The position numbers and the translations under genes are program-made. From contig CAYGLK010000001.1 in NCBI GenBank assembly GCA_964350985.1, positions 457,973-521,972 of the forward strand: a stretch of DNA of 64,000 nt, in the 5' to 3' direction. Under the pieces are notes generated by a model. It saw nothing but the letters and a program-made list of their open reading frames with translations. It had not been told where the DNA came from and did no database searches. Positions 931-26,807 of the stretch are shown here, in pieces (within the stretch, counting starts at the first letter, position 1; the number at the start of each line of letters is the position of its first letter). Source of the stretch: an uncultured Candidatus Saccharibacteria bacterium. Lineage in GTDB: Bacteria > Patescibacteriota > Minisyncoccia > Phycocordibacterales > UBA918.

Positions 931-1959
931 TTACTTTATTGTGTTTGTAGACAGAAATTTTTGAACAACTTGTTCTAATTCCTCTACGCTGTCTTGCGCC
1001 ATCAAATCTGCTCTCAGTTCTGCAGCTCCATCGAAGTCTTTAATATAAGCTTTAAAATGCTTCTTCATTACAGCCAGATTTTTAAAAGGTAAAATTTCTT
1101 GAAAGAGTTTTGTCTGCTCTAGCATTACAGCCAGCCTGGTCTCAAGAGGTACGTTAGTGGCATCTTTTTCAGGATGAAAAAGCCACGGGTTACCAAAGAT
1201 AGCTCGACCGAGCATTACTCCATCAGCACCAGTAGCTTCTGCTTTAGCTCTAGCGTCTTCAATGGAAAGAGCGTCGCCATTGCCAATGATCCTGGTCTCA
1301 AGTTTGTCTGCACCCAAAATCTCATTTCGTATCTCTACCGCCCGAGCGATTCTTTCCCACCGCGCTGGAACCTTACTCATTTCTTTTCTGGTACGAGCAT
1401 GCAAGGTAATAGCTGCTGGTCTTTCCTGAAGTAACGCCGGAAGCCATTCTTCTAGTTGGTCTCGGTTATAACCAAGTCTAGTTTTGACTGACACTGGAAT
1501 ACCTCCATCATCCATCTTGGCTCCACGCTTGGCAGCTTGGATAATTTTAGCGGCTACTTCTGGGTTTTTGATCATCGCTGAACCACAACCTTGTTTTTCA
1601 ATAGACTTATCTGGACAGCCCATATTAATATCAACACCATCAAAACCAAGCGAGAGACATAGAGCGGCGGCTTGCTCCATATGAGCTTCATTACTAGAGA
1701 ACAACTGAGCTACTATTGGTCTTTCTGCTTCAGTATAAATAAGGTCGGCCATTAGTTTTGCTTTACCTTCGGGGGTAGCTCGGACTAGTCCATCTGCTGC
1801 CACAAACTCAGTCCACATCACGTCAGGACCACCAACTGTACCGTCTCGTCTTGTGTGAGCACTGTACTTAGCAATTACTCGTCTAAAAGGCGCGTCAGTA
1901 ACATCCGCCAATGGCGCTAGGACAAAAAATGGAGTTGGTAATTTTTTCCAAAATGACAT
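931..1959 (-). CDS. dus: tRNA-dihydrouridine synthase
   Basis: ORF of 342 aa. N-terminus LAPLADVTDAPFRRV and the motifs GCPDK and NxGCP match the Dus family TIM-barrel flavoenzyme. Confidence 0.85.
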   Translation of the reverse strand: MSFWKKLPTPFFVLAPLADVTDAPFRRVIAKYSAHTRRDGTVGGPDVMWTEFVAADGLVRATPEGKAKLMADLIYTEAERPIVAQLFSSNEAHMEQAAALCLSLGFDGVDINMGCPDKSIEKQGCGSAMIKNPEVAAKIIQAAKRGAKMDDGGIPVSVKTRLGYNRDQLEEWLPALLQERPAAITLHARTRKEMSKVPARWERIARAVEIRNEILGADKLETRIIGNGDALSIEDARAKAEATGADGVMLGRAIFGNPWLFHPEKDATNVPLETRLAVMLEQTKLFQEILPFKNLAVMKKHFKAYIKDFDGAAELRADLMAQDSVEELEQVVQKFLSTNTIK

Positions 1960-2002
1960 AAGGCCTGTTTTAACATACTTTAGCCAACTATGACAACGGT
2001 TT

Positions 2003-2890
2003 CTACTCTAATTCTTCTTCCGTATCATCAGCAGCTTCTTCAGTACTTGTAGCAACTCCTTCTTCTTCCGGAACCGCTACTTCCTCATTAACGAATACTC
2101 TTGAACCAAAACGTAGATCTAGATAAAGGAAATTTCCTGGCTCAAGATGAGAAAATTGTTCTGAATTAATTATTGTTTGCAAGTTTGAAACAGTATCTAT
2201 TGCTGGAGTATCTAGATTGGCCTTGATTTCACTACCGCGGGCTAAAGTGTAAAAAACATCTCCAGTTGAATTAATTTCAATTTTTACGACATACCAACCC
2301 AACTGTGATAACAAGTAGGTAAATTCTTTAGAGTTTACATAATACTCCTCACTAAACGGTTTGGTATTTATTTCAAAACGATTTTCAACATCGTAATAAC
2401 GCACCAAACTTGAACCAGATAAATTAGGTGCCTTTGCAAAAGCATAGCCCTCTTTATCTAAGAAAAGACAACTATCATGATCGTTACTATCGCACCACAA
2501 AGCATCAGGCAAGTACTCATCAAAAGTGACTGAGATTTCTTTTCTTGAAACACGATCTACTTTTACATCTTTTATTTTTTCTATTTGATTTACTCGCTCC
2601 AAAATACTCTCTTCCGGATATAAATAAGAAAACTTTTTTGGTATCAATTTAAAATATGATCCGGTAAGTTGTTCGCGAGCGATTGTTTCAACTTTTTTCT
2701 TATCAATAGTAAATCCGCCTTCTACTGTAACCGTGTCTAGCGTAAAGGTTGAAAGCCTAGTCCCATACCAAATAGCCGTAATAACTAAAGCTACTGAGCT
2801 AAATATAATCAGACCTAGAACAATTTGCTTGATTAAAAGAATTGTTCCAGGATCCAGATATTTTTTACGCTTTTTTGGTTTTGGTTTCAT
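2003..2890 (-). CDS. ftsQ: Cell-division protein FtsQ/DivIB-like (N-terminal basic tail, one TM helix, POTRA/beta domains)
   Basis: 295 aa. MKPKPKKRKK, then a TM helix, then a pattern typical of the FtsQ POTRA domain. The C-terminus has an acidic tail. Confidence 0.5.
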   Translation of the reverse strand: MKPKPKKRKKYLDPGTILLIKQIVLGLIIFSSVALVITAIWYGTRLSTFTLDTVTVEGGFTIDKKKVETIAREQLTGSYFKLIPKKFSYLYPEESILERVNQIEKIKDVKVDRVSRKEISVTFDEYLPDALWCDSNDHDSCLFLDKEGYAFAKAPNLSGSSLVRYYDVENRFEINTKPFSEEYYVNSKEFTYLLSQLGWYVVKIEINSTGDVFYTLARGSEIKANLDTPAIDTVSNLQTIINSEQFSHLEPGNFLYLDLRFGSRVFVNEEVAVPEEEGVATSTEEAADDTEEELE

Positions 2891-2899
2891 AGATATATA

Positions 2900-2933
2900 A
2901 AAGAAGGGCGGGCTTCGCCCGCCCTTCTTTTTG
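2900..2933. terminator. GC-rich perfect hairpin plus T-run (aagaagggcgggcttcgcccgcccttcttttt) between serS and ftsQ
   Basis: Inverted repeat read directly from the sequence. Confidence 0.6.
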
Positions 2934-2934
2934 A

Positions 2935-4200
2935 TTAACCAATCTTATCCTTACCCATATACTCACGTAGTTTTTCTGGAATCAGAATACTGCCGTCTTC
3001 CTGCTGAAAGTTTTCCAGTAGTGAAACGAGGATACGTGGTGTTGGGATGGCGGTACAGTTAAGTGAGTGTGCGTAACGCATCTTCCCTTCTGCGTCACGA
3101 TAACGAATATTAAATCTTCGTGTTTGGAAGTCGTGGAAGTATGAAGCTGAACTTATCTCTCTGTAAGTCTTTTCTCCTGGTACCCAGAGCTCAATATCAT
3201 ATTTCTTCACTTGTCCCTGACCTAAGTCACCACCGCAGTTTAATACCGTTCGATATGGAATTCCGAGTGATTCAATAAACTCTTCAGTATTGCGATTGAT
3301 CCACTCATGGAGACGGACACTTTCTTCATGTGAAGCTTCACACAAGACCACCTGTTCCAGTTTGAAAAATTCATGTACTCGAATTAGCCCTTTAGTATCT
3401 TTTCCATGACTTCCAGCTTCGCGACGATAACAAGGTGAGAACGCCAAAAACTTTGCTGGTAGTTGTGACTCTTCTAAAACTTCGTCAGCATAAAGACCCA
3501 TTGTTGAAACTTCTCCTGTACCGATCAGATAATCTTCGTCTTGAGTCTTATATACATCCTCAGCTTCGTTTGGTAGGTGTCCAGTTCCGTAAAGATTACT
3601 CTTACGAACAATACTCGGAACCAATAGTGGTTCAAAGCCTTTCTCTAAGAAAAACTTGTTAGCGTAGTTCCAAACCGCCCAAGAAAGTCGAGCGCCGTCA
3701 CCTCGAAGGTAGTAACCACGAAAACCATGAACTTTGGTCCCGCGCTCGAAGTCAGCCATCTTGTGTTTATTCATCAACTCTACGTGATCTTTAGCTTCAA
3801 AAGAAAAAGAAGTTTGTTCTCCCCACGTTTTGACTTCCTGATTATCAGCGTCACTATCACCATCAGGCACAGACATATCTGGAATGTTTGGTACTTGGAG
3901 CATTAATCCTTGCCATTCTTCCATTATTGGCTTCAGGGCTTCTTCTTCTTTCTGTAGATCTAGTTTAAGAACCTGCATCCCAGAGATAAGATGTTGTCTT
4001 AAAGCTGCATCATTTCCAGCCGCTGCAATTTCTTGTGAAGCTTTATTTTGTTCTGCTTTCTTAGTCTCAAGCTTGGTCATGATCTCACGCCGTTGATCAT
4101 CAATCTTAAGCAGTCGATCAATATCGATTTTAATCTTCTTTTTTTGAGCCGCTAGTTTTACTAGGTCAGAATTCTCTCTGATGAATTTAATATCTAACAT
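2935..4200 (-). CDS. serS: Seryl-tRNA synthetase
   Basis: 421 aa. N-terminal coiled-coil arm (MLDIKFIRENSDLV...), then a class II core with FRRE-like and GGxxG motifs, as in SerRS. Confidence 0.9.
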   Translation of the reverse strand: MLDIKFIRENSDLVKLAAQKKKIKIDIDRLLKIDDQRREIMTKLETKKAEQNKASQEIAAAGNDAALRQHLISGMQVLKLDLQKEEEALKPIMEEWQGLMLQVPNIPDMSVPDGDSDADNQEVKTWGEQTSFSFEAKDHVELMNKHKMADFERGTKVHGFRGYYLRGDGARLSWAVWNYANKFFLEKGFEPLLVPSIVRKSNLYGTGHLPNEAEDVYKTQDEDYLIGTGEVSTMGLYADEVLEESQLPAKFLAFSPCYRREAGSHGKDTKGLIRVHEFFKLEQVVLCEASHEESVRLHEWINRNTEEFIESLGIPYRTVLNCGGDLGQGQVKKYDIELWVPGEKTYREISSASYFHDFQTRRFNIRYRDAEGKMRYAHSLNCTAIPTPRILVSLLENFQQEDGSILIPEKLREYMGKDKIG

Positions 4201-4294
4201 AAAATATAGTCCAAGTATTATAACGCATCACTTCTCTAGGACGAAATCCCTTACTTAGCAACATCAAATGAGATCATGCTACACTTTTTAGAGA

Positions 4295-5164
4295 ATGGAA
4301 ATATCTCATATAACCAGTTCAGAATTTAAAAAGCATAATCTAGGCATTTTAAATGAAATCCCGCAGCCGCCGAAAGAATTTTGGTATCAAGGCAACCTAC
4401 CCGACTCAAGCATAACTCTACTAGCAGTTGTTGGCTCCAGAAAATACACTACCTATGGACAGCAAGTGATTGATCACCTTATCGGTGGACTAGCTGGTTA
4501 CCCTGTTGGGATTGTCTCTGGTTTAGCGTTAGGTATGGACGGATTAGCACACGAAGCAGCTCTCAAAAATAACCTATATACTTTAGCGATACCAGGTAGT
4601 GGACTTGATGAATCAGTCCTCTACCCAGCTAGTCACAAGAGCTTAGCTCGAAAGATACTCGAAAGTGGCGGTGGTCTTTTGTCTGAACTGGCGCCAAAGG
4701 CAAGAGCAGCTCTTTGGACTTTTCCACAGAGAAACCGGGTCATGGCTGGTCTTTGTAAAGCGACTCTACTTATAGAAGCAGGAGAAAAGTCCGGCACTCT
4801 GATTACCGCCAGAATGGCTGTCGACTATAATCGTGAACTATTGGCAGTACCTGGAAGTATCTTTTCAAAGAACTCTGCCGGTACGCATCAGTTCCTAAAA
4901 CTGGGAGCCACGATGGTAACTGAGGCGGCTGATATTTTAGAAGTACTGCAGATAGAAAGTGAAAAAACCAAACCTACACAAAATAGTTTACTTTTATCTG
5001 AAATTGAAAAAACTATTATTGAACTACTTCATGAACCTCAAGACAAAGACACCTTACTGAGACAACTTCCTTTACCGACTTCTGAAGCCAGTATTATCTT
5101 GATGAATATGGAAATGCAGGGTTATATTACCTATGAATCACCTCATTATCGGGCACTCATCTAG
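4295..5164 (+). CDS. dprA: DNA processing protein DprA (Smf)
   Basis: 289 aa. Rossmann-like DprA core VVGSRKYTTYGQQV...GLALGMDGLAHEAAL...PQRNRVMAGL. Confidence 0.8.
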   Translation: MEISHITSSEFKKHNLGILNEIPQPPKEFWYQGNLPDSSITLLAVVGSRKYTTYGQQVIDHLIGGLAGYPVGIVSGLALGMDGLAHEAALKNNLYTLAIPGSGLDESVLYPASHKSLARKILESGGGLLSELAPKARAALWTFPQRNRVMAGLCKATLLIEAGEKSGTLITARMAVDYNRELLAVPGSIFSKNSAGTHQFLKLGATMVTEAADILEVLQIESEKTKPTQNSLLLSEIEKTIIELLHEPQDKDTLLRQLPLPTSEASIILMNMEMQGYITYESPHYRALI

Positions 5165-12385: not shown

Positions 12386-13303
12386 CTAAGAACGACAATC
12401 CCAGTGATCATTACTTGTATTTACTCCTTCTCGAACACATGCAACTCCGCTACTAATATTTACTCTACCTTGGCGACTTCCCTGATTTCCATCTCTAAAG
12501 TTTGGCCCCATAATATATGAATTAACGTCACTGGTTCTTAAGTCAAACTTATCTCCGCCAGCATGAGTTCCTGGTCCACTACCAGAGTGCCCTAGCTCAC
12601 TTCCTCCTGTTACTGTAAATGCTGGACAAGCGGTGCCGCATTCATTTCTTAAGTGAATAAGTCCTTGTATCGCTCCAGGATTTAATCCTTCTACACTAGT
12701 ACATCCTCCTGGGTGATCTTGATATCTGACACCAGCTGGACACTCCCCTTTATTAACGGTGATTCCATTTGAAGCAAGTGTACTTCTAGCTTCTCCATTA
12801 CCAATAACAGGAACTGCTCCCGGATCTACTGGAGTAACTCCACCCACCGCAGCTGGTGGATTATAAGTTGGTGTTTGTGTCTGGCACTGAACTTCAGACC
12901 ACGGACCCCAACCTTCTATTTCTCCAATCGGAGCATTTGACACACCTTCACCACTTCCCCCACCAACAATTGAACGCATGATCGTATCAACAAAAATCCA
13001 AGCCGACATAATGATTAAAAGCCCAATGATTCCATTCTTAAATTTACTTTTAGCACCTTCTAGTGCTGAAGTATTTCCAGCAGATGTAATTAGTCCGAAA
13101 CCAGACACCATCATGATATATACAAAAATCAGAAAGACTGCTCCAAAAAGCCAAATGATACCCTTATTAGCAATATCTACTACATTACAAGCACTACAAC
13201 TTGTCCCTTCACAAATTAATTCCGAAATACCAGCAGCATCAACGGTACTAACTGGAATAAAGACAAAAAAAAGTGCCACTAGAATTAGAAATTTCATACC
13301 CAA
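12386..13303 (-). CDS. VirB2/TrbC-like pilin domain (signal peptide plus two TM helices) fused to a C-terminal Cys/Gly-rich domain with peptidase-M15/LAS-like motifs
   Basis: 305 aa. The N-terminal 110 aa resemble the tandem pilin paralogs at 26.3-28.1 kb. The C-terminus has THAGGDKFDL (H-x3-G-x3-D) and DHWD, resembling VanY/M15 zinc peptidases. That assignment is tentative. Confidence 0.45.
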   Translation of the reverse strand: MGMKFLILVALFFVFIPVSTVDAAGISELICEGTSCSACNVVDIANKGIIWLFGAVFLIFVYIMMVSGFGLITSAGNTSALEGAKSKFKNGIIGLLIIMSAWIFVDTIMRSIVGGGSGEGVSNAPIGEIEGWGPWSEVQCQTQTPTYNPPAAVGGVTPVDPGAVPVIGNGEARSTLASNGITVNKGECPAGVRYQDHPGGCTSVEGLNPGAIQGLIHLRNECGTACPAFTVTGGSELGHSGSGPGTHAGGDKFDLRTSDVNSYIMGPNFRDGNQGSRQGRVNISSGVACVREGVNTSNDHWDCRS

Positions 13304-13391
13304 TAATTATACTATATCAGTTACCTACAAAAGAAGCTCTGTGGCTAGCCTATTTGAAAAACCCACCGTCTGTGGTAATTTGTATGGCACT

Positions 13392-13474
13392 GCGTCGGTA
13401 CTCAAGCGGTCAACGAGGGGAGACTGTAAATCTCCTGACTTATGTCTACGAAGGTTCGAATCCCTCCCGGCGCA
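13392..13474 (+). tRNA. tRNA-Tyr (anticodon GTA), long variable arm
   Basis: Manual fold: acceptor GCGTCGG/CCGGCGC with one G-U pair, anticodon stem GGAGA/TCTCC, loop CTGTAAA. Confidence 0.75.
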
Positions 13475-13585
13475 CAAACCTTGACAATACACTGTTTTTA
13501 GTGTATTGTTTATAAACCGTACTAAGGACTGACGTTTGCGAAAAGCGAATGCAGGAGATCGAAGGCGGAACCAGGAGAATGTTCC

Positions 13586-14029
13586 ATGAATCTGAGAATC
13601 TGGCTGAAAGCCAAAGCGAAGGTAGGTGACGATAGCAAGATCGCCAACCTGAAGGTCGAGTCGGACGAAAAAAGTGGGGGCAAGTACCTCAACGCTTACA
13701 TCGATCCGATGGACCCCGCCATGCGCATGCCTATCGTCCCATGCAAGGACGTGCGGGCGTACACGTACACGGACGAGTACCACGTCGGCTACCGGCCGGA
13801 CGGCTTGTACAAGACACCCCATGCCGAGGCACGAGTGAAGACCAACAAGAACCTCCATACCCCAAGCTGGGACAACAAGGAGGACTGCTCGTTCATGATG
13901 GTTTCGCAGACCATCTCCATCACCGCCCCTAGCCTGAAAGCGCTCCGCGAGATCTACTCCAAGGTCCGCACCGGCGAACTGAAGGCTACGGAAGTCTGGG
14001 GAGAGGTCAAGGAAGAAATGTCGTACTGA
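13586..14029 (+). CDS. Hypothetical protein encoded in a high-GC (~60%) foreign segment, 147 aa
   Basis: Strong GC3 bias in this frame only. RBS aggaga sits 7 nt upstream of the ATG and a rho-independent terminator follows. I recognise no family. Confidence 0.6.
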   Translation: MNLRIWLKAKAKVGDDSKIANLKVESDEKSGGKYLNAYIDPMDPAMRMPIVPCKDVRAYTYTDEYHVGYRPDGLYKTPHAEARVKTNKNLHTPSWDNKEDCSFMMVSQTISITAPSLKALREIYSKVRTGELKATEVWGEVKEEMSY

Positions 14030-14055
14030 CGCCACACCAGCTCCATGCAAGTCGA

Positions 14056-14088
14056 AGCAGCTCCTGCTTCCCTGCCGGAGCTGTTTTC
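14056..14088. terminator. Hairpin gcagctcc..ggagctg plus TTTT after the high-GC gene
   Basis: Inverted repeat read from the sequence. Confidence 0.55.
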
Positions 14089-14186
14089 TATTTATATTAA
14101 ACCGCACAAAAGTGTCTAACCAACTCCAGCTCGGCGCACCAAATACCAAAACCAAAGCTTACGCTTTGGTTTTGTTGTATTTGTTA

Positions 14187-14308
14187 GCGCCGGGAGGGAT
14201 TCGAATGACTCTTTCGAGGGACCCTCAGGGACGAAAGAGTCGGGGTCGCAAGAGTGAGATATTTTATGAACGCAGTGAAATAAAATCTCCACGAGAGTGA
14301 CCGAATCC
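14187..14308. repeat. tRNA-flank modular element, copy B. It opens with an inverted copy of the tRNA-Tyr 3' end (gcgccgggagggattcgaa), 713 nt downstream of the tRNA.
   Basis: The hairpin stem differs from copy A by compensatory changes (gacagtttcg/cgaaactgtc versus gactctttcg/cgaaagagtc). The terminal box ends gaccgaATccc, matching the Tyr T-arm. Copy A ends gaccgaGTcc, matching the Leu T-arm. Confidence 0.7.
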
Positions 14309-14587
14309 CGTAAAACGTCACGTGCGTAGGGATTCGAAAAGCTTTTGAGCATTTTCTTGAGTTTACGAAAAGAAAATCCAAAAGGTGTGCTGCCCCTGTA
14401 AGCAAAGCTTTCTTTCACTGCATTCATATCATAAATGAAAATAAAATTTAATTTAGATACTCATTTGTGAAAGTAACGACCGAAATTCCCTCCCAACACC
14501 CAGTAAATATTGACATCAGACATAAAAAGTAGTTAAATCTGGTTTGCTAGCCTGTCCTTTCCACCCCTCCCCCACCAAGGAAACATC

Positions 14588-14929
14588 ATGATCACATTCT
14601 CCCCCAAAAACAACTTCTTCGGCCGTTTCATTGCCTGGCTGAATGATTTTTCACTGGACATTCAAGAAGCCTGCTTCATCCGCAGAAAATTGACCCTTAC
14701 TGAGATGGTCCGATCGTCCAAGGAGGTCTTTGAATGCTGTAAAGAAGATGCCTCCCGAGAAGCAGCCTTGGAAATTTGGGACAACGCTGCTAAGAATCTA
14801 ATTCTAAGCACTGAGACGATCTCAGAGCTGGAAAAGGCTCTTTTGCTTTCACCTAGCGGTGGTAAGGCCGAAGAAACAGCAAGTGATTACCAAAGACCTA
14901 AACTTTTGGCTGCCGTCAGCGGCGAGTAA
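14588..14929 (+). CDS. Hypothetical small protein (113 aa), GC-elevated
   Basis: Upstream TTGACA-17-TTAAAT, RBS aagga, and two consecutive terminators downstream. Confidence 0.45.
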   Translation: MITFSPKNNFFGRFIAWLNDFSLDIQEACFIRRKLTLTEMVRSSKEVFECCKEDASREAALEIWDNAAKNLILSTETISELEKALLLSPSGGKAEETASDYQRPKLLAAVSGE

Positions 14930-21128: not shown

Positions 21129-21203
21129 AGTCCTGGTGGCGAAGTGGTTAACGCTGCGGTTTGCAAAACCGCCATACGTGGGTTCAACTCCCACCCAGGA
21201 CTC
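21129..21203 (+). tRNA. tRNA-Cys (anticodon GCA)
   Basis: Acceptor GTCCTGG/CCAGGAC, anticodon loop TTGCAAA, T-arm GTGGG-TTCAACT-CCCAC. Confidence 0.8.
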
Positions 21204-21431
21204 ACGTCATTAAAACGCTTCGAGCGTTTTAATGACGTGAGTCCTGGAGCATCATGCTTAGGCATGATGCGGGTGGGAGTTGAACAGCGGAGCAATGTTT
21301 TCTTTCCTCCTAGAAAGAAAACGAGCGAGCTGCGTCCAGTAGTTCTTATGAGCGTCAGCGAATTAGAAACTACGGGACAACTCCCAATTCTCGCCAATCC
21401 AGACAAATAAAAATCCACCATACAGAAACTT

Positions 21432-21517
21432 GCCGGGATGGTGGAATGGTAGACACGAAGGACTTAAAATCCTTTGCCTATTAAAAAAGCGTGCGGGTTC
21501 GAGTCCCGCTCCCGGCA
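21432..21517 (+). tRNA. tRNA-Leu (anticodon TAA), class II
   Basis: Acceptor GCCGGGA/TCCCGGC, anticodon stem AAGGA/TCCTT, loop CTTAAAA, T-arm GCGGG-TTCGAGT-CCCGC. A perfect terminator hairpin follows at 21519-21560. Confidence 0.7.
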
Positions 21518-22085
21518 CAATAGTAAAAACCACCAACTTTTGTTGGTGGTTTTTACTATTGTCGTAGGGACTCGAAAGCCGGAACGTAACGGAGTGAAGT
21601 AAGGCAGGGTCGTGAGCGATATATTTTTAACGAGTTTACGAGTTAAAAATAATCGACTCCTGACCGAGTCCCGCTCCCGGCTTATCTGTACAAATGAGTG
21701 AGATTATTTTATGAACGAAGTGAAATAAAATAACCACGAGAGTGACCGAGTCCCTTTTGCTTTTGTGGTCACGAGTTACTAAGTCTTTTATTTCACTACG
21801 TTCATAAAAGTCTAAGTACTCTCGACCCCGACTTGTCGGCCCAAAGGGGCCCCGACTTCGTCTTTCAAGTCCTCTCCCGCGCGACAAACAGCAAAGCCCT
21901 AGAACAAATTGTTCTAGGGCTGCTGATTTGTGCGCGGGAGAGGAATCTTTCTCGTTACACGAGCGGTACAGGTTTCATATCGTACTCGCTTCGCTGCGTG
22001 CGATATATTCAACCTTTTCAAGTCCTCTCTCGAAAGCTAACGCTTTCTCCGCGCAAACTAAAAGCCCCGAAGGGCTTTCATTTTG
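21518..22085. repeat. Repeat-dense non-coding hub between tRNA-Leu(TAA) and tRNA-Leu(TAG). Components, in order:
- a terminator hairpin;
- a direct partial copy of the tRNA-Leu(TAA) 3' end (gagtcccgctcccggc, 21669-21684);
- the TTTTATGAACGAAGTGAAATAAAAT box (21695-21753) and its inverted copy (21783-21836), forming a ~140-bp nested palindrome;
- inverted and direct copies of the tRNA-Leu(TAG) 3' end (21873-21950).
   Basis: All repeats read directly from the sequence. I consider the ORFs predicted here spurious. Confidence 0.6.
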
Positions 22086-22167
22086 TGCGCGGGAGAGGAC
22101 TTGAACCTCCACAGATTGCTCTATTAGTTCCTAAGACTAACGCGTCTACCAATTTCGCCACCCGCGC
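22086..22167 (-). tRNA. tRNA-Leu (anticodon TAG), class II
   Basis: Reverse complement folds with acceptor GCGCGGG/CCCGCGC, anticodon stem TTAGT/ACTAA and loop CTTAGGA. Confidence 0.75.
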
Positions 22168-22265
22168 GGATGTGGGAAAGAGTATAACATAAATCAAAAA
22201 AATGTCTTCTGTGATTATTAGCTTGTTTAAACAGGTATTATATTGTAAACTTCGAGTCACATATT

Positions 22266-22338
22266 GCGCCCTTAGCTCAGATGGTAGAGCAGCTCCCTCT
22301 TAAGGAGACGGTCCAAGGTTCGATCCCTTGAGGGCGCA
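22266..22338 (+). tRNA. tRNA-Lys (anticodon CTT)
   Basis: Acceptor GCGCCCT/AGGGCGC, anticodon loop CTCTTAA, T-arm CAAGG-TTCGATC-CCTTG. Confidence 0.75.
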
Positions 22339-22350
22339 CAAAATAATATA

Positions 22351-22410
22351 AAACAAAGATCGTATCATGTATGATACGATCTTTGTTTTTCATATCATGT
22401 ATGATACGAA
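22351..22410. promoter_or_regulatory. Two copies of the palindromic operator-like core ATCATGTATGAT downstream of the regulator gene. The first lies inside a 38-bp perfect palindrome that is also a terminator-like hairpin.
   Basis: aaacaaagatcgtatcatgtatgatacgatctttgttt plus catatcatgtatgatacga. Two more copies lie at 22864-22905. Confidence 0.5.
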
Positions 22411-22412
22411 AG

Positions 22413-22859
22413 CTATTTTTTAAATATTTTGTCGGATAAGTTAAATAACAAAAAGTGCATTGGATGTTTTTTCTTGAGGCTAGCGAATGTAAGTTGGGAA
22501 TAGTGTTCTTGACCTTCATTATATTCCTTTGTTAAATTATTTTTTGCCCGCTTCTCTTTCTCTAACTTGACTGCTTTCCCATACTCAGGAAACTCATCAA
22601 TTAACCATCTCTTTACTTTTATCACAGTATTTGGACTAAGCTTCAAGTCATAAATGATTTCAGCTTGAGATCGCCCTGAAAGAAGCATTTGTGCTATCAA
22701 AAGCCTACGTCCCAACATCAGTTGCTCACTTTCAGTTAATAATTCTTTAATAAAATTCTTCCCTTTATTTTCTTTAGCTGCAGAATCAGCTGCTCCGAAA
22801 AGGGTTTTTATTGCTAACTTATCTAAAGGCTTATCTCTGTCACTAATTTTCTTTTTCAT
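22413..22859 (-). CDS. TrpR/YerC-family HTH regulator
   Basis: 148 aa. LTESEQLMLGRRLLIAQMLLSGRSQAEIIYDLKLSPNTVIKVKRWL matches the Trp-repressor-like fold. Four copies of a palindromic site flank the gene. Confidence 0.55.
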   Translation of the reverse strand: MKKKISDRDKPLDKLAIKTLFGAADSAAKENKGKNFIKELLTESEQLMLGRRLLIAQMLLSGRSQAEIIYDLKLSPNTVIKVKRWLIDEFPEYGKAVKLEKEKRAKNNLTKEYNEGQEHYSQLTFASLKKKHPMHFLLFNLSDKIFKK

Positions 22860-22932: not shown

Positions 22933-23973
22933 CTAGCTTATTGCAGACCTCAACTTAGTCTTTTTAAACTGCGACGGCCTAAAGAAGCGATTATAGTAAC
23001 GGGCGATTATTTTCTTAACCTTAGCAGGTAAACTATCAATCAACTCACACTTCTTAGAACAATAACCTTTTCTTTTATCTAGACAGTTATCGCAACCCAG
23101 AAACAAAACGTGACAGACTTGGTTTTTACAATGATAGTGATTGTCACTCTTTTCTTCGCGACAGAGGTGGCAATGAGAAATTACTTCATCCCCAATCTTC
23201 TCACCGAGACGTTCATCAAATACAAAGTTCTTTCCACGAAACATATTTGGCAAACCTTCTTTTTCAACTTGATGTTTGTAATCAATCACTCCCCCTTTTA
23301 AATGACGTACATTCTCGTAACCTTGGTGCTTAAGCCAGGCACTAGCTTTCTCACAACGAATACCACCAGTACAGTAGAGAGCAATTTTTTTATTTTTATG
23401 GAGTTTTAAAATTTCAGGTACAACCTTAAGTTCTTCTCTAAAAGTATCAACGTCGGGCTTAATAGCATTTTCAAAATGACCAATCTCACTCTCGTAAGCA
23501 TTGCGCATATCCACAATCACAGCCTCGGGATCTTCTACATAAGCATTGATCTCAGCAGCAGTTAGATACTCACCAGTGTTAGTAACGTCAAAACTATCAT
23601 CATCCAAACCATCAGCAACAATCTTACCTTTAACCTTAATAGCGAGTTTATAAAAAGATGAACTCTCCCCTTCCTCAACTGCAAACTTATAAGGTACCTC
23701 AGCTAGTTCTGGTTGTGCTTGAACCCAGGTGTCAAAAGCATCCCAATTTTCCTCTGGTACATTCATTTGTGCATTGATCCCCTCATAGGCGACATAGATA
23801 CGTCCCAAACAGCCAAGAGAACCCCAAGCTTCTAAAAGTCTAGTGCGGAAGGTTTCTGGGTCACTTAGCTTTACATAACGATAAAATGAGAGGGTCTTAC
23901 GAGCACGAGTATCTGCTAAGACAGCTTGTCTTTTTTCATGACGTGGCCGCATATCAGGGCGATTAAGTGACAT
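22933..23973 (-). CDS. trhO: tRNA uridine(34) hydroxylase TrhO (rhodanese-domain protein, YceA/UPF0176) with a Cys-rich C-terminal extension
   Basis: 346 aa. The N-terminal UPF0176 domain and the rhodanese active-site CTGGIRCEKASAWL are conserved. Confidence 0.75.
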   Translation of the reverse strand: MSLNRPDMRPRHEKRQAVLADTRARKTLSFYRYVKLSDPETFRTRLLEAWGSLGCLGRIYVAYEGINAQMNVPEENWDAFDTWVQAQPELAEVPYKFAVEEGESSSFYKLAIKVKGKIVADGLDDDSFDVTNTGEYLTAAEINAYVEDPEAVIVDMRNAYESEIGHFENAIKPDVDTFREELKVVPEILKLHKNKKIALYCTGGIRCEKASAWLKHQGYENVRHLKGGVIDYKHQVEKEGLPNMFRGKNFVFDERLGEKIGDEVISHCHLCREEKSDNHYHCKNQVCHVLFLGCDNCLDKRKGYCSKKCELIDSLPAKVKKIIARYYNRFFRPSQFKKTKLRSAIS

Positions 23974-24195
23974 ATAGTTCTATAGAAGTAGTTAAGAAAC
24001 AAAATGGTAACAGAGCCAAGACCTACACGCAACCACACTCAAGAACTAAACATTTTCATTATTTTACAAAGGGTCACCCTAGGGAAAATACCAAGGTCGA
24101 TCCTTTGTATAGTTGTATTCTGGTCAATATATGCAAAATTAGTAGATTCTTGCTAGAAAAGCCATATTTATAGCCATATTATGGAGGTAGTAAAC

Positions 24196-24224
24196 TTGAC
24201 TTTTGCACTAAAATATGCTATGAT
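24196..24224 (+). promoter_or_regulatory. Sigma-70-like promoter TTGACT-17-TATGAT for the high-GC two-gene island
   Basis: Read directly from the sequence; 94 nt upstream of the first gene. Confidence 0.5.
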
Positions 24225-24317
24225 AGTAAATGGAAGGGCTAAACAGAATCAACGGTAGAGAAATCTACTTTCGCTTTTTGACAATACAATCGCGACAGAA
24301 GTCGCAAAGGAATCGAA

Positions 24318-25175
24318 ATGGACGTGCTTAAGAGACTCAAAAGCCTGGCTGGCTTGGCCACTTGGAGTAGTCATTTTGACACTCTGGGCAACATAATCGC
24401 AAGAATATTGGGCAGGAATCAAGTAGAAGGATCTCCACCGGCAGTGGGAGCTCCTCCAGTAGTTAAGGGGAGGAGCGGATTTGGCAGCTGGGGTGACGAG
24501 CGAAAGTGGCTCGTCTTCCTCGAAGCTGCTGAAACACACAGCCCAGGGGCAGCAAAGCTTCTGACTGATTTTTGGAATTGGGCTGACAAATATGATGGCC
24601 CGAGTTGGCTGGCCCGGAGTTACATTAAGTTGATCGGGAGTTTTAGAAGGACTCTCATCGTGGAAATGGGCTCCAGCGAAGGAGCGGAGTGTGGCAGCAA
24701 AACAACGAAGACAAGGACCACCCGCAAGGAAGAGGATGGTGAGAGTGTCGTTGTTGAGGAGCAGCGGACGGAAAAGCTGCACATCGCTGGCACATCAAAT
24801 CCCAAGCAACTGTTTCTGCGGATGGCCAAGATCATCCGCGAAAATCAAGCCAGTGACACGGCGCGGGGGCGGCTGCGAGGCTACAAAGCCTGTCGGCAAT
24901 TCCTCCATGATAACTGGGTACCATTTCCAGACCAGAAGATCATTACCCTTCTGGAACGCCTCGAGACTGGCAGTAAAGAAAGTGTGGCTACTCTATGGTC
25001 ACAAGCACTAGAGATCATCGGTCGCACCGACACACACATGACGTTTCATCTGTCCCAATGGGCGGATGATGCAGAAGTATGGTCGGTTGCTCGGCGGGCG
25101 GAATTACCAATCCGGCGAGCTGCAAGAACAACAACCCTCTTTGATCGGTGCCACGCTTTTTGTCGCCGAATCTAA
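24318..25175 (+). CDS. Hypothetical protein (285 aa) in a high-GC (~53%) island
   Basis: Frame-specific GC3 bias and RBS aagga. I recognise no family. The antisense ORFs here are spurious. Confidence 0.5.
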   Translation: MDVLKRLKSLAGLATWSSHFDTLGNIIARILGRNQVEGSPPAVGAPPVVKGRSGFGSWGDERKWLVFLEAAETHSPGAAKLLTDFWNWADKYDGPSWLARSYIKLIGSFRRTLIVEMGSSEGAECGSKTTKTRTTRKEEDGESVVVEEQRTEKLHIAGTSNPKQLFLRMAKIIRENQASDTARGRLRGYKACRQFLHDNWVPFPDQKIITLLERLETGSKESVATLWSQALEIIGRTDTHMTFHLSQWADDAEVWSVARRAELPIRRAARTTTLFDRCHAFCRRI

Positions 25176-25193
25176 CAACCCTTGGAGATCGGA

Positions 25194-26176
25194 TAATGTT
25201 TAGTGAAATCATGCGTCTGGTGCGGGCACTTCTGTCAGCTGCAGACGACCAGGAAGTGCGGGACATACTTATTGATAAACCTTCGCGTTTGCGAAGTGCG
25301 ATCATGCTGTTCTTCGTCCTTGCCTTTGGTGCAATATGCCTAGGCTGGTTCTGTAACATCATCGGCATCAAGGAGGCCAATGCTGTCCTGTTCTTTCTCG
25401 GAGCTTTCCTTATCGGAGCCAAGACGTTACTCAACCCAGCTCTGCTGGGAGCGAGTGGTGGTATTGGCCTCCTGCTGGGATGGCTCAACAGCGAGGGCGC
25501 TGCAAAGGGCGCTGGCAAAGGGATTTACTTCCTTTATCAAGCCAGTGTTTGGACCTTGTTATGGTTTACCTTGACCACGATGGTCTTGGCGACATGGTCC
25601 TTTCAAGAGAGCCCTGGTTCATTCTGGGTGTTCGCCATGGGGACCATGGTTATGGCCCTGGCTGTTACGGCCTACAAAGTCGAAGGAAAGACAACCTTCA
25701 CATTGATTGCCATCTATGCAATCGTTGTTATGGCGAGCGCAGGATGGCAAACACTTTCCACTGACCAGAAACCAAACTGGTCTTGGGAAAAAATAGTCCG
25801 GACCCTCGACGTCGACAAGACTGACGAGGAGAAGGCGGTGGAGGCAAAGGAAAACTTGGTTTCTGAAGCCAAGGCGAAGGCTGAGGCTGATGAAGTCACG
25901 CGGTTGACGAAAGCAGTGACCCAACAACTGCCAACAACGATCGCAGTGCCCCACTGCAAGAATGGAGTGTCCGCACCGGTGATATTACCGGTCGGCTGGC
26001 ACCTTCGTTCCGGCTGGGGAGGAGGCTCGGTCAAGGTTGAGTACCTCAGTGGTGGCGACTGGGAAGTTGCCACCAGGAGCAATACCGAAAAGCCGGTAGA
26101 GGCTTTCCGCTACTGCACCAACTCGGAACACAACGCGGCACTGGGCATAATGCCTTTGTCGTGGACACGTATCTGA
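25194..26176 (+). CDS. Hypothetical polytopic membrane protein with a C-terminal soluble domain, second gene of the high-GC island
   Basis: RBS GGAGAT sits 6 nt upstream of the ATG at 25194; the six-frame ORF starts at 25148. About six TM helices, then an E/K-rich linker and a C-terminal domain. Confidence 0.5.
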
Positions 26177-26208
26177 GCAAGAAGAACAAATCCTCAATGG
26201 AATGAGGT

Positions 26209-26241
26209 CAACCGGGCTAGCTTGCTAGTTCGGTTGTTTTT
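26209..26241. terminator. Hairpin aaccgggctagc/gctagttcggtt plus TTTTT ending the island operon
   Basis: Imperfect inverted repeat plus T-run. Confidence 0.5.
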
Positions 26242-26259
26242 ATATAAAAATTTTATTAG

Positions 26260-26754
26260 CTAAGGGTTACCTCCACCTGAACCTCCTGAGTTACCGCCCC
26301 CTGGGCCGCCTGGATTGCTTCCTCCCGGTCCACCAGGATTGCTACCGCCAACACCTGTGTTTGGTTGGAAAATAAAGTCACAACCTGGAAGAGTTGGGTC
26401 ATTAGCGCATTCTAAATTTTTATTTAAACCAAAAGTTCCAGCAGCCAAATTAAACAAAGCGTAGGCTGACATAATTATTACTAATCCTAGCAATCCATAA
26501 GTGATATTCTTCTTCCCTTCTGAACGGGCGCTTTCGTTGTCAGCATTCATAATATAAACAGCACAACCATAAATGAAGAACAAAAAAGCAACTGCTGACA
26601 TTAGAGAAATTAACGGAAACAATATATAAGTGTCTATTTTATCAACTAGGCCTTTCGCCGCTGCGTTCGCTGCTTCTCGAGCTGCATTATTAGCGGCTTC
26701 TTGTTCTGGAGTCATATAGACAATAGTATCAGAGCTTAGGTTAAGAAAAAACAC
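26260..26754 (-). CDS. VirB2/TrbC-like (T4SS pilin-like) small membrane protein with a Gly/Pro/Asn-rich C-terminal tail
   Basis: 164 aa with two hydrophobic helices. It is one of four paralogs in tandem. Confidence 0.45.
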   Translation of the reverse strand: MFFLNLSSDTIVYMTPEQEAANNAAREAANAAAKGLVDKIDTYILFPLISLMSAVAFLFFIYGCAVYIMNADNESARSEGKKNITYGLLGLVIIMSAYALFNLAAGTFGLNKNLECANDPTLPGCDFIFQPNTGVGGSNPGGPGGSNPGGPGGGNSGGSGGGNP

Positions 26755-26807
26755 TAATACACAAAAGCCCCGTAAGGGGCTTTTGTGTATTAGTTTAATA
26801 CTTATGC

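Follow-up and report, generated by a model that had tools for sequence, protein, structure and literature searches.

A two-gene slot beside the pilin array of Paceibacteria, probably filled by replacement-type cassettes

Operons in which a gene for an SPFH protein of the stomatin, HflK or QmcA type is paired with one for an NfeD-type membrane protein, its "operon partner", are found in both bacteria and archaea (PMC2636767; PMC4208085). Replacement-type flexible genomic islands hold different genes of similar function at the same position and are renewed by homologous recombination in their flanks (PMC4033161). In Patescibacteria, the VirB2-like pilin arrays are described, in the part of the source paper that was available, as highly variable, members of one array sharing about 25% identity; the same part makes no mention of a two-gene operon (PMC12102498). 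Polymorphic toxins, in turn, join a conserved N-terminal module to interchangeable C-terminal modules.

The locus considered here lies in a 64,000-nucleotide stretch of DNA (the window) and encodes two proteins, ORF1 and ORF2. As in the SPFH/NfeD operons, 44 related genomes have in the corresponding slot a stomatin-like SPFH gene and, downstream of it, one for a membrane protein that ends in a small beta domain, and the window operon has the same layout and the same C-terminal module as one SPFH-type relative, L095. However, the window has no SPFH gene and ORF1 has no SPFH similarity, neither ORF2 nor the partner proteins of the relatives match NfeD in Pfam or the PDB, and NfeD proteins are not known for cysteine-paired C-terminal domains that change anchors, as those of the slot do. 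With flexible islands the slot shares conserved flanks, non-homologous alternatives, sharp breaks, a deviant composition and, probably, a cell-surface product, but it spans just two genes and about 2 kb, the differences recorded are those between species and genera, its expression signals stay in place, one breakpoint is intragenic with a domain kept in frame, and in most lineages the compositional shift is towards higher GC3. A VirB2-like pilin array directly adjoins the window operon, although the operon is a separate, convergent transcription unit encoding unrelated proteins. ORF2-type proteins resemble polymorphic toxins in their modular build, but the slot has no downstream immunity gene and no known toxin domain, and its modules are small beta domains with cysteine pairs, carried by an integral membrane anchor.

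The locus is best explained as a replacement-type cassette slot of the ultrasmall Paceibacteria (Patescibacteria/CPR), the content of which differs between lineages, a reading to which we assign a probability of about 60%. In its favour are the scattered distribution of cassette types, the lack of correlation between the identities of cassettes and flanks, the sharp breaks and the resident expression signals. A strong resident promoter, a structured leader and a resident terminator would drive an operon opposite in strand to the pilins (Table 1). Its first gene would alternate between a stomatin-like SPFH gene, in most genomes, and the unrelated soluble ORF1 family, in this one; the second would carry a membrane module, in unrelated versions, with small cysteine-pair C-terminal domains shuffled between anchors. 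In the window, the leader, ORF1 and the six-helix membrane module would have replaced the SPFH gene and short anchor of the nearest relative and been fused in frame to the C-terminal module that the relative also has, this direction of replacement being the one suggested by parsimony. The likely route would be homologous recombination in the conserved flanks and inside the C-terminal module.

Table 1. Features of the locus and its neighbours, in window coordinates.
Feature	Position	Strand	Remarks
TrhO-type gene (UPF0176_N + Rhodanese + Rhodanese_C)	22933-23973	-	TrhO architecture
AT-rich inverted-repeat-like motif CCATATTTATAGCC	24162..24175	+	about 30 nt upstream of the -35 box
Predicted promoter TTGACT-17-TATGAT, TG-extended -10	24196..24224	+	best match (10/12) in 7 kb
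5' leader	24225..24317	+	between promoter and ORF1
Replaced segment (leader, ORF1, ORF2 membrane module)	24235..25862	+	no DNA similarity to L095 (blastn)
ORF1	24318..25175	+	285 aa; no hydrophobic segment
ORF2 ribosome-binding site GGAGAT	25184..25189	+	6 nt before ATG 25196; direct sequence reading
ORF2	25196..26176	+	326 aa; ATG 25196
ORF2 part common to L095 (coiled-coil linker + ~85-aa module)	25863..26176	+	continuous DNA homology with L095
Predicted intrinsic terminator	26209..26241	+	12-bp stem 26209-26236, then T run
VirB2-like pilin gene	26260-26754	-	like the genes beyond it, matches T4SS_pilin PF18895

In all 46 of the 46 related Paceibacteria loci with both flanks, an opposite-strand operon, usually of two genes, stands between trhO and the VirB2-like pilin array; beside the window operon this array comprises four small genes, three of them matching T4SS_pilin. 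The order trhO, two genes, pilins, SBP, methyltransferase, gyrA is found in L004, L009, L011 and L095, and the same order also holds in 46 of the loci retrieved with SBP. The first cassette gene is a stomatin-like SPFH gene in 44 loci and a member of the ORF1 family in 12, including the window, and the second encodes a polytopic membrane protein with a variable C-terminal domain, the cysteine count of which is nearly always even. Relatives of ORF2 or of its module come after an SPFH gene in L095, L046 and L073; in the window operon, which has no such gene, the partner of ORF2 is ORF1. Homologues of ORF1 and ORF2 occupy the same position in at least 12 genomes, and all homologues with readable context are in this Paceibacteria slot, the contigs of L002 and L013 being too short to show flanks. 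They are rare, with two to seven matches among 5.8 billion clustered proteins in a word-indexed search. In the one species sampled repeatedly the cassette does not vary, P0005 being identical on 11 contigs from several samples; exact 42-mer and ORF1 protein scans of JGI metagenomes found neither a near-identical strain of the window genome nor a close donor.

Compared with the nearest relative found (L095, GyrA 91%), the window has breakpoints at 24235 and 25863, and opposite the segment between them L095 holds a non-homologous SPFH-type cassette. With more distant relatives, similarity is lost from about 24240 to 26377. Could such differences have arisen by purely vertical descent, from one ancestral operon changing extremely fast under diversifying selection, without exchange between lineages? 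The position is conserved, no locus lacks the operon, the cassette is uniform within one species, and the ORF1 of the window is closest to that of L017, from the same SBP clade, all of which would suit such a history. We nevertheless consider it improbable. The two first-gene families, ORF1 and SPFH, and the two kinds of membrane module have no profile similarity, yet they alternate between sister taxa, and the ORF1 type appears in about ten separate places on the SBP tree (neighbour-joining, one protein, no support values). Between cassettes and flanks, identities are uncorrelated (Spearman coefficients of 0.03 and -0.03 between SBP identity and that of ORF1 and ORF2, respectively), and there are strong reversals: L035 and L044 share 74% identity in SBP and 86% in TrhO but only 29% in ORF1, while L035 and L050 share 53% in SBP but 67% in ORF1. 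Homology breaks with knife-like sharpness, ending between L032 (SPFH) and L050 (ORF1 type) at the end of the last pilin and returning exactly at the start codon, and different anchors carry one and the same C-terminal module. A similar pattern would be expected from an old balanced polymorphism with lineage sorting. The boundaries of a mobile element were also considered around the segment and rejected, since there are no meaningful direct or inverted repeats beyond chance; no integrase-like ORF or other mobility gene lies between trhO and the pilins.

The preliminary description had assigned the pair a promoter and a terminator of its own. Both are present, at 24196 and 26209, but comparison with the relatives shows them to be resident in the slot, conserved across cassette types and not imported with the genes. 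Promoter-like matches as a class are not enriched (18, against 12.5 +/- 3.8 in shuffled sequences); 34 of 50 related loci have TTGACT-17-TATNAT, at a score of at least 10/12, ahead of their first cassette gene, whatever the cassette type, and the window promoter is homologous to those of L021 and L095, both of which have SPFH-type cassettes. The region 24154-24237 is 76-80% identical to SPFH-type relatives and includes the AT-rich motif, which is CCTTATTTATAAGG-like in the relatives, holds the same relative position in many aligned upstream regions and is possibly an operator or an UP-like element. The terminator is homologous to that of L095, and the differences in its stem are paired (compensatory) changes.

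The leader of the window carries TGGAAGGG at 24231-24238, near the predicted transcript start, a small hairpin at 24255-24268, TTGACA at 24278-24283 and a hairpin, GCGAC-AGAA-GTCGC, at 24292-24305, together with a Shine-Dalgarno-like AGGA. The leaders of the relatives have a 5' hairpin of varying sequence, a second hairpin and TTGA[CA]A just ahead of the ribosome-binding site; TTGA[CA]A is present in 31 of 42 leaders (3.1 expected). No DNA homology between the window leader and L095 was found by blastn, and the window leader folds weakly (z = -0.6). In per-sequence folds the leader hairpins have a mean z of -1.7, with 16 of 39 below -2. RNAalifold gave no consensus from a MAFFT alignment because the stems vary in both sequence and length, so the support for the hairpins is that of the per-sequence folds.

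ORF1 belongs to a small uncharacterised family of soluble proteins with invariant D60 and E61 (a GDE motif), R111 and P202; its closest homologues are 47-50% identical. It has no significant match in Pfam, NCBIfam, PHROGs, PADLOC or the PDB, and its AF2 model (pLDDT 59, built from a seq­uence alignment of 7 members), a helical core with a long hairpin, has no fold match. The SPFH identity of the common first gene, on the other hand, is firm at the level of sequence profiles: 17 of 23 slot SPFH members match Pfam Band_7, and the family profile finds PH stomatin at 7e-17, human stomatin at 2e-15 and HflK at 1.5e-12. Since stomatin is found at such a value, the method is able to detect SPFH proteins. 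For ORF1 there is no Pfam match to SPFH/Band 7 (PF01145) at E <= 1, a PDB profile search with the ORF1 family retrieved no SPFH protein, and neither an SPFH-type membrane anchor or hairpin nor an alpha/beta fold with a coiled coil after it is seen, as there is no hydrophobic segment and the modelled fold is the helical one. That ORF1 might be a diverged SPFH protein was rejected, hhalign giving a probability of 0.1 between the ORF1 and slot SPFH families.

ORF2, modelled by AF2 at a mean pLDDT of 85, comprises six predicted helices between residues 29 and 185, then a long helix (210-244) and, at the C-terminus, a beta domain (248-325). Its membrane module belongs to a family with 110 representatives at E < 1e-10 in a profile search, recognisable by the motif LNDxDxSQG...ATWSF...P.AF, which is followed by a variable, cysteine-containing C-terminal region; in the window the first motif is divergent (LNSEGAAKG), and the closest homologues of the module are 31-34% identical. 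Searches of Pfam, NCBIfam, PHROGs, PADLOC, the PDB and BFVD returned no significant match for ORF2, a Pfam scan of all 84 ORF2-family members returned none, and the same is true of Foldseek against the PDB and of PDB profile searches started from the ORF2 family, from the C-terminal module and from the partner proteins in SPFH-type cassettes. No NfeD domain (PF01957) or C-terminal OB-fold was detected in ORF2 by Pfam, PDB profiles or Foldseek. The possibility that the ORF2 module is a diverged version of the other partners was rejected by hhalign.

The C-terminal module has two invariant cysteines (LP..I.VP.C..G.S...P.GW...W...YL..G.W...VEAFRYCT.S...G.M.L.W). In L095 it is part of a 139-aa protein downstream of the Band_7 gene, where it rides on a short N-terminal hydrophobic anchor, and it is 67% identical to P0004 and P0016, in which it is attached to other membrane anchors. 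The C-terminal regions hold two or four cysteines in 78 of the 84 ORF2-family members, and the module is probably extracytoplasmic. The earlier view of ORF2 as a polytopic protein agrees with the six helices, and that of an extracytoplasmic-looking C-terminal domain with the even cysteines, but six helices with a positively charged N-terminus would put the C-terminus in the cytoplasm, in conflict with the argument from cysteine parity. A positive-inside count over the ORF2 family gives no clear orientation.

What might such a slot be for? The Paceibacteria, like other CPR bacteria, are believed to live attached to other cells, and the genes that determine partner specificity are largely unknown. 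The slot lies beside pilus genes in every relative examined, keeps a strong promoter and combines a repeatedly swapped, presumably exposed domain with a cytoplasmic partner, which makes it a concrete candidate for partner specificity and a marker that could readily be tracked in metagenomes; turnover of the exposed domain likewise suggests a role in cell-surface specificity. ORF1 may be cytoplasmic and associate with ORF2, which would anchor a disulfide-bonded domain on the outer face of the membrane, and the pair would then perform the job done in the relatives by the SPFH scaffold and its membrane partner. A more far-reaching proposal, which we hold only tentatively, is that a fixed "expression socket" beside the pilin array, consisting of the promoter, the leader with its UUGACA box and the terminator, receives non-homologous two-gene modules that are exchanged, sometimes in frame with the exposed domain kept, and act as a determinant of the specificity of episymbiont cell-cell contact, the excess of G and C being the footprint of frequent recombination (GC-biased conversion) or of a shared cassette pool. 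Whatever the function, the locus brings forward two protein families (ORF1 and the ORF2 membrane module) and one small cysteine-pair domain that are without annotation.

The entry-exclusion proteins of conjugative systems are likewise variable inner-membrane proteins, and the operon could be an accessory part of the T4SS or pilus, such as a VirB6-like channel subunit or a factor for entry exclusion or specificity. It always adjoins, and is convergent to, the VirB2-like array, a class described as variable in Patescibacteria (PMC12102498). This role is unlikely, since ORF2 has no Pfam match to TrbL/VirB6 and only an insignificant one, in a fold search, to 8rtd_L, a chain of the R388 T4SS (E = 0.8, TM 0.13), the operon forms a transcription unit of its own on the opposite strand, and the retrieved flanks contain neither VirB4 nor any other T4SS gene. 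About equally unlikely is an anti-phage system of the abortive-infection or exclusion kind in a defence hot spot, with ORF1 as the sensor and ORF2 as a membrane-disrupting effector. Defence loci typically have patchy types, rapid turnover, an atypical composition and a pair of soluble and membrane genes, all of which are seen here, and there are faint similarities to a PHROG holin (E = 0.2) and, for ORF2, to PADLOC CARF_TM (E = 0.035, 12 bits). No PADLOC or PHROG match is significant, however, and PADLOC finds nothing in ORF1; moreover, what the slot contains is in every case a single operon built to one general design, never varied or absent cargo, most genomes have a stomatin-like scaffold in it, and the strong, constitutive-looking promoter is kept across the lineage.

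Why, then, is the slot so rich in G and C? The GC-elevated island of the preliminary description is borne out by a sliding window: the top 1-kb windows of the 64 kb are 24501-25500 (GC 0.531) and 25001-26000 (0.526), against a mean of 0.405. The GC of ORF1 and ORF2 is 0.530 and 0.533 and their GC3 0.535 and 0.603, while the 42 other long ORFs of the window have a GC3 of 0.31 +/- 0.05 (z = 5.5 for the pair). The shift is not particular to this genome. Over 46 loci the GC3 of the slot is 0.547, against 0.426 in the flanks (Wilcoxon p = 3e-11), in 30 of the 46 no other gene of the locus is as high as the cassette, and in L095 the values are 0.54 and 0.56 against 0.30-0.39. In about 8 of the 46 loci (e.g., L025, L026 and L067) GC3 is not raised, so the factor behind the elevation is not universal. 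The part of ORF2 common to L095 has the highest GC3, 0.67. Raised throughout the lineage and peaking in this common part, GC3 neither dates nor marks an import; a high silent-site GC is a property of the slot across the lineage and no date stamp of transfer.

The anomaly had been taken to indicate recent horizontal acquisition, and a foreign island that arrived from outside the lineage with its own promoter and terminator would account for the GC3 of the pair, the lack of DNA similarity to relatives over most of the segment and the rarity of homologues. Of the classical marks of horizontally acquired islands, an atypical composition is indeed seen, but absence from the same site in relatives is not observed. 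Of the marks of replacement-type islands, conserved flanks enclose non-homologous alternatives, SPFH type or ORF1 type, at one position, and island and flanks are phylogenetically discordant (by the neighbour-joining tree and the identity correlations). The slot is never empty, and syntenic homologues occur in at least 12 genomes, the very arrangement that the preliminary description had set against its own proposal. With the same compositional offset across the relatives, expression signals homologous to those of relatives with other cassette types, the highest GC3 in the portion shared with L095, readable homologues confined to this slot, no integrase, repeats or att-like sites, and a best ORF1 homologue of only 47-50% identity, the foreign island is largely refuted and very improbable. 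Exchange as such stands for part of the locus (24235-25862); recency has no sign in its favour, given the distance of the homologues of both proteins. Its coding content having been exchanged between lineages, most of which show a high silent-site GC in it, the replacement-type slot is no simple one-off island. For genome scans this is a caution: the strong GC3 anomaly and the "self-contained" signals here belong stably to the slot and give no evidence of recent insertion from outside.

Candidate causes of the elevation are GC-biased gene conversion at a recombination hot spot and a shared pool of GC-richer cassettes. The consistent upward shift in AT-rich genomes could offer a natural test case for bacterial GC-biased gene conversion. 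In the pooled data the synonymous shift favours C over G, which pure GC-biased conversion does not predict. Translational selection was rejected as the cause: the window genes for FtsZ and ribosomal protein S1 use NNC in preference to NNU, yet their four-fold-site GC is low (0.12-0.23), and the pair is raised in every synonymous class.

GC-rich stretches in AT-rich genomes are often structured RNAs, and many antisense ORFs are present here, but a non-coding reading, whether as such an RNA or as chance ORFs, is refuted by conservation at the protein level, with significant homologues and conserved motifs for both ORFs and the high pLDDT of ORF2, by antisense ORF lengths that codon composition predicts, and by Rfam, which returned only tRNAs and noise for the whole window (gathering thresholds) and for 24100-24400 (permissive search). 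ORF1 and ORF2 are real protein-coding genes. The two co-directional ORFs first described, the 285-aa soluble protein, the trhO and pilin flanks and the membrane-associated nature of the pair all hold up. Homology and structure searches, which had been proposed for both proteins, gave homologous families and a good model of ORF2, though no known family or fold. Antisense ORFs are, as had been supposed, spurious, because their lengths equal those in codon-shuffled controls; real antisense or overlapping genes were rejected on the same ground. The second ORF had been given 342 aa, which corresponds to a GTG start (25148..26176). Its GGAGAT site is present, and since this lies 6 nt ahead of the ATG, ORF2 is taken to have 326 aa, the length also called in Logan, with 321 aa called by NCBI. 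The closest tRNA genes are at 22085-22339, past trhO and one more gene.

The locus between trhO and the pilin genes is a replaceable cassette: it fills a conserved, always-occupied slot, has expression signals that belong to the slot, and shares in a lineage-wide excess of GC at third codon positions (GC3). The preliminary description had taken it for a recent acquisition with its own signals; that reading is only partly supported, for part of the segment has been exchanged, but permanent occupancy, resident signals and the lineage-wide GC3 tell against the rest. The window cassette is like two known kinds of locus, the replacement island and the SPFH-partner operon. It consists of unannotated protein families.

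ORF1 and ORF2 are real genes, since each has significant homologues and the ORF2 fold is predicted at pLDDT 85. The soluble 285-aa ORF1 product, the promoter and terminator around the pair, and the flanking genes (a TrhO-type rhodanese and VirB2-like T4SS_pilin genes) were all found as first described, and the antisense ORFs dismissed as spurious are no longer than in codon-shuffled controls. The 342 aa reported for ORF2 hold in so far as its frame can be read from a GTG at position 25148, but the GGAGAT box cited with it (25184-25189) lies 6 nt upstream of the ATG at 25196, giving the shorter protein; gene callers gave 326 and 321 aa, corresponding to this ATG or a nearby start. Rfam has no family matching the two-gene stretch.

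Features of the cassette and its surroundings in the window
Feature	Position	Strand	Remarks
Cluster of four tRNA genes (Cys, Leu, Leu, Lys); Trp-repressor-like gene	21130-22859		just beyond trhO; Trp-repressor-like gene at 22413-22859
AT-rich inverted-repeat-like motif	24162-24175		divergent trhO/cassette intergenic region
Promoter TTGACT-17-TATGAT	24196-24224	+	TG extension; top promoter-like site within 7 kb
Leader	24225-24317
ORF1	24318..25175	+	285 aa; hydrophobic segment absent
ORF2	25196..26176	+	326 aa from ATG behind GGAGAT
ORF2, membrane part	residues 29-185		six predicted membrane helices
ORF2, middle part			35-residue helix between membrane helices and beta domain
ORF2, C-terminal part	residues 248-325		small beta domain
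Terminator-like 12-bp hairpin and T run	26209-26236	+	downstream of ORF2
Last pilin gene	26260-26754		repetitive Gly/Pro/Asn-rich tail (GGSNPGGPGG...) of GC 0.56
Perfect 19-bp inverted repeat and T run	26753-26794		strong terminator-like hairpin; between two pilin genes

What are the two proteins? Neither had been recognised at first, and neither has a match in Pfam, NCBIfam, PHROGs or PADLOC. The ORF1 family is very small, with seven proteins in an index of 5.8 billion sequences and an invariant GDE motif, R111 and P202. Its model is mediocre (pLDDT 59), with a helical core and one long hairpin, and no structural neighbours were found. For the ORF2 membrane module, an exhaustive profile search gave 110 representatives at E < 1e-10, with the motif LNDxDxSQG...ATWSF...P.AF; no fold similar to ORF2 was found among solved or viral structures. 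The regions C-terminal of this module vary from member to member, and that of the window, which has two invariant cysteines, also occurs on quite different membrane anchors at 45-67% identity. In 78 of 84 family members the C-terminal region has 2 or 4 cysteines, a pattern that suggests disulfide bonds and hence an extracytoplasmic location; loop charge distribution is indecisive on the topology.

Weak homologues of ORF2 (P0005 and P0006) and of ORF1 (P0010) lie in identical gene order in three other assemblies: trhO, the pair, convergent pilins, SBP (a flank gene beyond the pilins), a methyltransferase gene and gyrA. Identity to the window is 84% for GyrA, 67-70% for TrhO and 43-46% for SBP, and only about 20% for the cassette pair. 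With SBP as bait, 80 further loci were collected, all from Paceibacteria/Parcubacteria MAGs, some of them labelled otherwise. Presence or absence in related genomes had been proposed as a check, and it spoke against a recent arrival: all 46 loci with both SBP and trhO have the slot filled, nearly always by a two-gene operon on the strand opposite the pilins. The first cassette gene encodes a stomatin-like SPFH protein in 44 loci and an ORF1-family protein in 12, the window among them. Profile matches of the SPFH family include PH stomatin (7e-17), human stomatin (2e-15), HflK (1.5e-12) and QmcA (5e-11), and 17 of 23 members match Pfam Band_7. No profile similarity was found between the SPFH and ORF1 families, or between the ORF2-type membrane module and the membrane proteins behind SPFH genes. 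Two loci (L046 and L073) have hybrid cassettes, in which the first gene is of the SPFH type and the membrane module behind it of the ORF2 type, and thus the two genes can combine across types. L002, a 2.3-kb contig (GC 0.55) that contains nothing but the cassette, possibly an effect of assembly breaks at the variable borders, encodes a 459-aa protein with a weak Band_7 hit and the 236-aa P0004, whose C-terminal module is 67% identical to that of the window; the GC3 of these genes is 0.59 and 0.77.

Fast divergence alone would seem insufficient for this pattern, which points to exchange. On a neighbour-joining SBP tree, the ORF1-type cassette occupies about ten separate spots among SPFH-type neighbours, and over the 12 ORF1-type loci SBP identity is uncorrelated with that of ORF1 or ORF2 (Spearman 0.03 and -0.03). 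Loci L035 and L044 share 74% identity in SBP and 86% in TrhO, yet only 29% in ORF1. L035 and L050, with 53% identity in SBP, have 67% in ORF1 but only 27% in the ORF2 module, and so the two genes reassort as well. In a comparison of two sister loci, L032 (SPFH type) and L050 (ORF1 type), DNA homology runs through SBP and all pilins, ends with the last pilin gene and is picked up again precisely at the first cassette gene's start codon; both loci have leader, promoter and trhO in common.

The nearest relative found, L095 (GCA_035324355.1; GyrA 91%, TrhO 79%, SBP 62% identity), carries a cassette of the SPFH type, in which a Band_7 gene precedes the gene for P0016 (139 aa). Its homology to the window covers trhO up to 24038 and a promoter piece (24154-24234), is absent from 24235 to 25862, and restarts at 25863, inside ORF2 at the start of the linker helix, from where it extends over the C-terminal module, the terminator (with paired changes in its stem) and the pilins. 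Leader, ORF1 and six-helix module thus occupy the place of the SPFH gene and short anchor of L095, joined in frame to the common C-terminal module. Since the SPFH type predominates in the window's clade, the ORF1 type is, by parsimony, presumably the derived state. No repeats or mobility genes were found at the cassette borders; the simplest route of replacement would be homologous recombination in conserved flanks, the mechanism reported for flexible genomic islands of the replacement type (PMC4033161).

The expression signals are resident in the slot, whatever cassette type follows. TTGACT-17-TATNAT precedes the first cassette gene, of any type, in 34 of 50 loci (score >= 10/12). In related loci the leader starts with a G-rich, TGGAAGGG-like sequence, followed by a 5' hairpin whose sequence varies from genome to genome, a second hairpin (both based on single-sequence folds) and TTGA[CA]A directly before the ribosome-binding site; 31 of the 42 leaders have this last motif, where 3.1 would be expected. 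The architecture is kept upstream of either cassette type in the window and L014-L091; the window leader has the motifs but folds weakly. Rfam has no family for the leader, which could serve as an mRNA-stabilising or regulatory element. The AT-rich, CCTTATTTATAAGG-like motif, a possible operator, is found again in many relatives, some 30-40 nt before the -35 box.

Why is the cassette GC-rich? The elevation first noted (about 53%) is borne out: 1-kb windows over the pair reach GC 0.53, the maximum of the 64-kb window (mean 0.405). It lies mainly at third positions, with GC3 of 0.535 (ORF1) and 0.603 (ORF2) against 0.31 +/- 0.05 in 42 other long ORFs (z = 5.5 for the pair), and non-coding flanks are at host level. 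Across 46 loci, mean cassette GC3 is 0.547, versus 0.426 in the remaining genes of each locus (Wilcoxon p = 3e-11), and it exceeds that of every other gene in 30; it tracks host GC3 (slope 0.71, r = 0.51), with the offset greatest in AT-rich hosts and lacking in about eight loci. Translational selection of the genome does not account for the rise, because in the window's FtsZ and S1 genes the only bias is towards NNC over NNU and four-fold GC is low, whereas the pair is raised at four-fold sites and in both pyrimidine- and purine-ending two-fold codons. Because GC3 peaks in the C-terminal module shared with L095 (0.67; the membrane module has 0.61, ORF1 0.54), it neither marks the imported part nor dates the transfer. 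Candidate sources are GC-biased gene conversion (PMC4450053) where recombination has a hot spot, and a common pool of GC-richer cassettes; pooled synonymous data, with C in excess over G, fit neither cleanly.

Defence, T4SS-accessory or other roles are conceivable, but found no support in Pfam, PADLOC or structure searches. Four points suggest a membrane complex: the gene layout, the SPFH proteins in the equivalent position, the cysteine-pair domain, which is shuffled and likely exposed, and the constant proximity of a VirB2-like pilin array. In this complex, a partner that is cytoplasmic or membrane-proximal (ORF1 in the window, a stomatin-like scaffold in other genomes) would join a polytopic protein displaying a variable domain, and a role in surface specificity is plausible. 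VirB2-like pilin arrays of Patescibacteria are described as variable (PMC12102498).

In most comparisons the tail of the last pilin gene (26260-26380) has no DNA homology to relatives, homology beginning near 26378, and thus the variable zone spills into the pilin C-terminus. The inverted repeat between two pilin genes suggests that the array is more than one simple transcription unit. Relatives hold other genes beyond trhO (in L004, a DCC1-like/DoxX gene), and the far side of trhO is therefore also rearranged. In L095, genes for a Fic-domain protein and an AEP-TOTE/SNF2-type helicase lie between rbfA and trhO (1306-4498); the window has neither at that position, and they are possibly an inserted module for defence or of mobile origin. 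The window's other GC-rich stretch (13300-14500, GC up to 0.50) includes a tRNA-Tyr (13392-13475). Three ORFs in it, at 13586-14029 (+), 14588-14929 (+) and 13325-14155 (-, overlapping the tRNA-Tyr), have no Pfam match, and Rfam gave no hit. The stretch adjoins another gene for a T4SS_pilin-domain protein (12386-13303, 305 aa) and is possibly another variable region next to a gene of pilin type.
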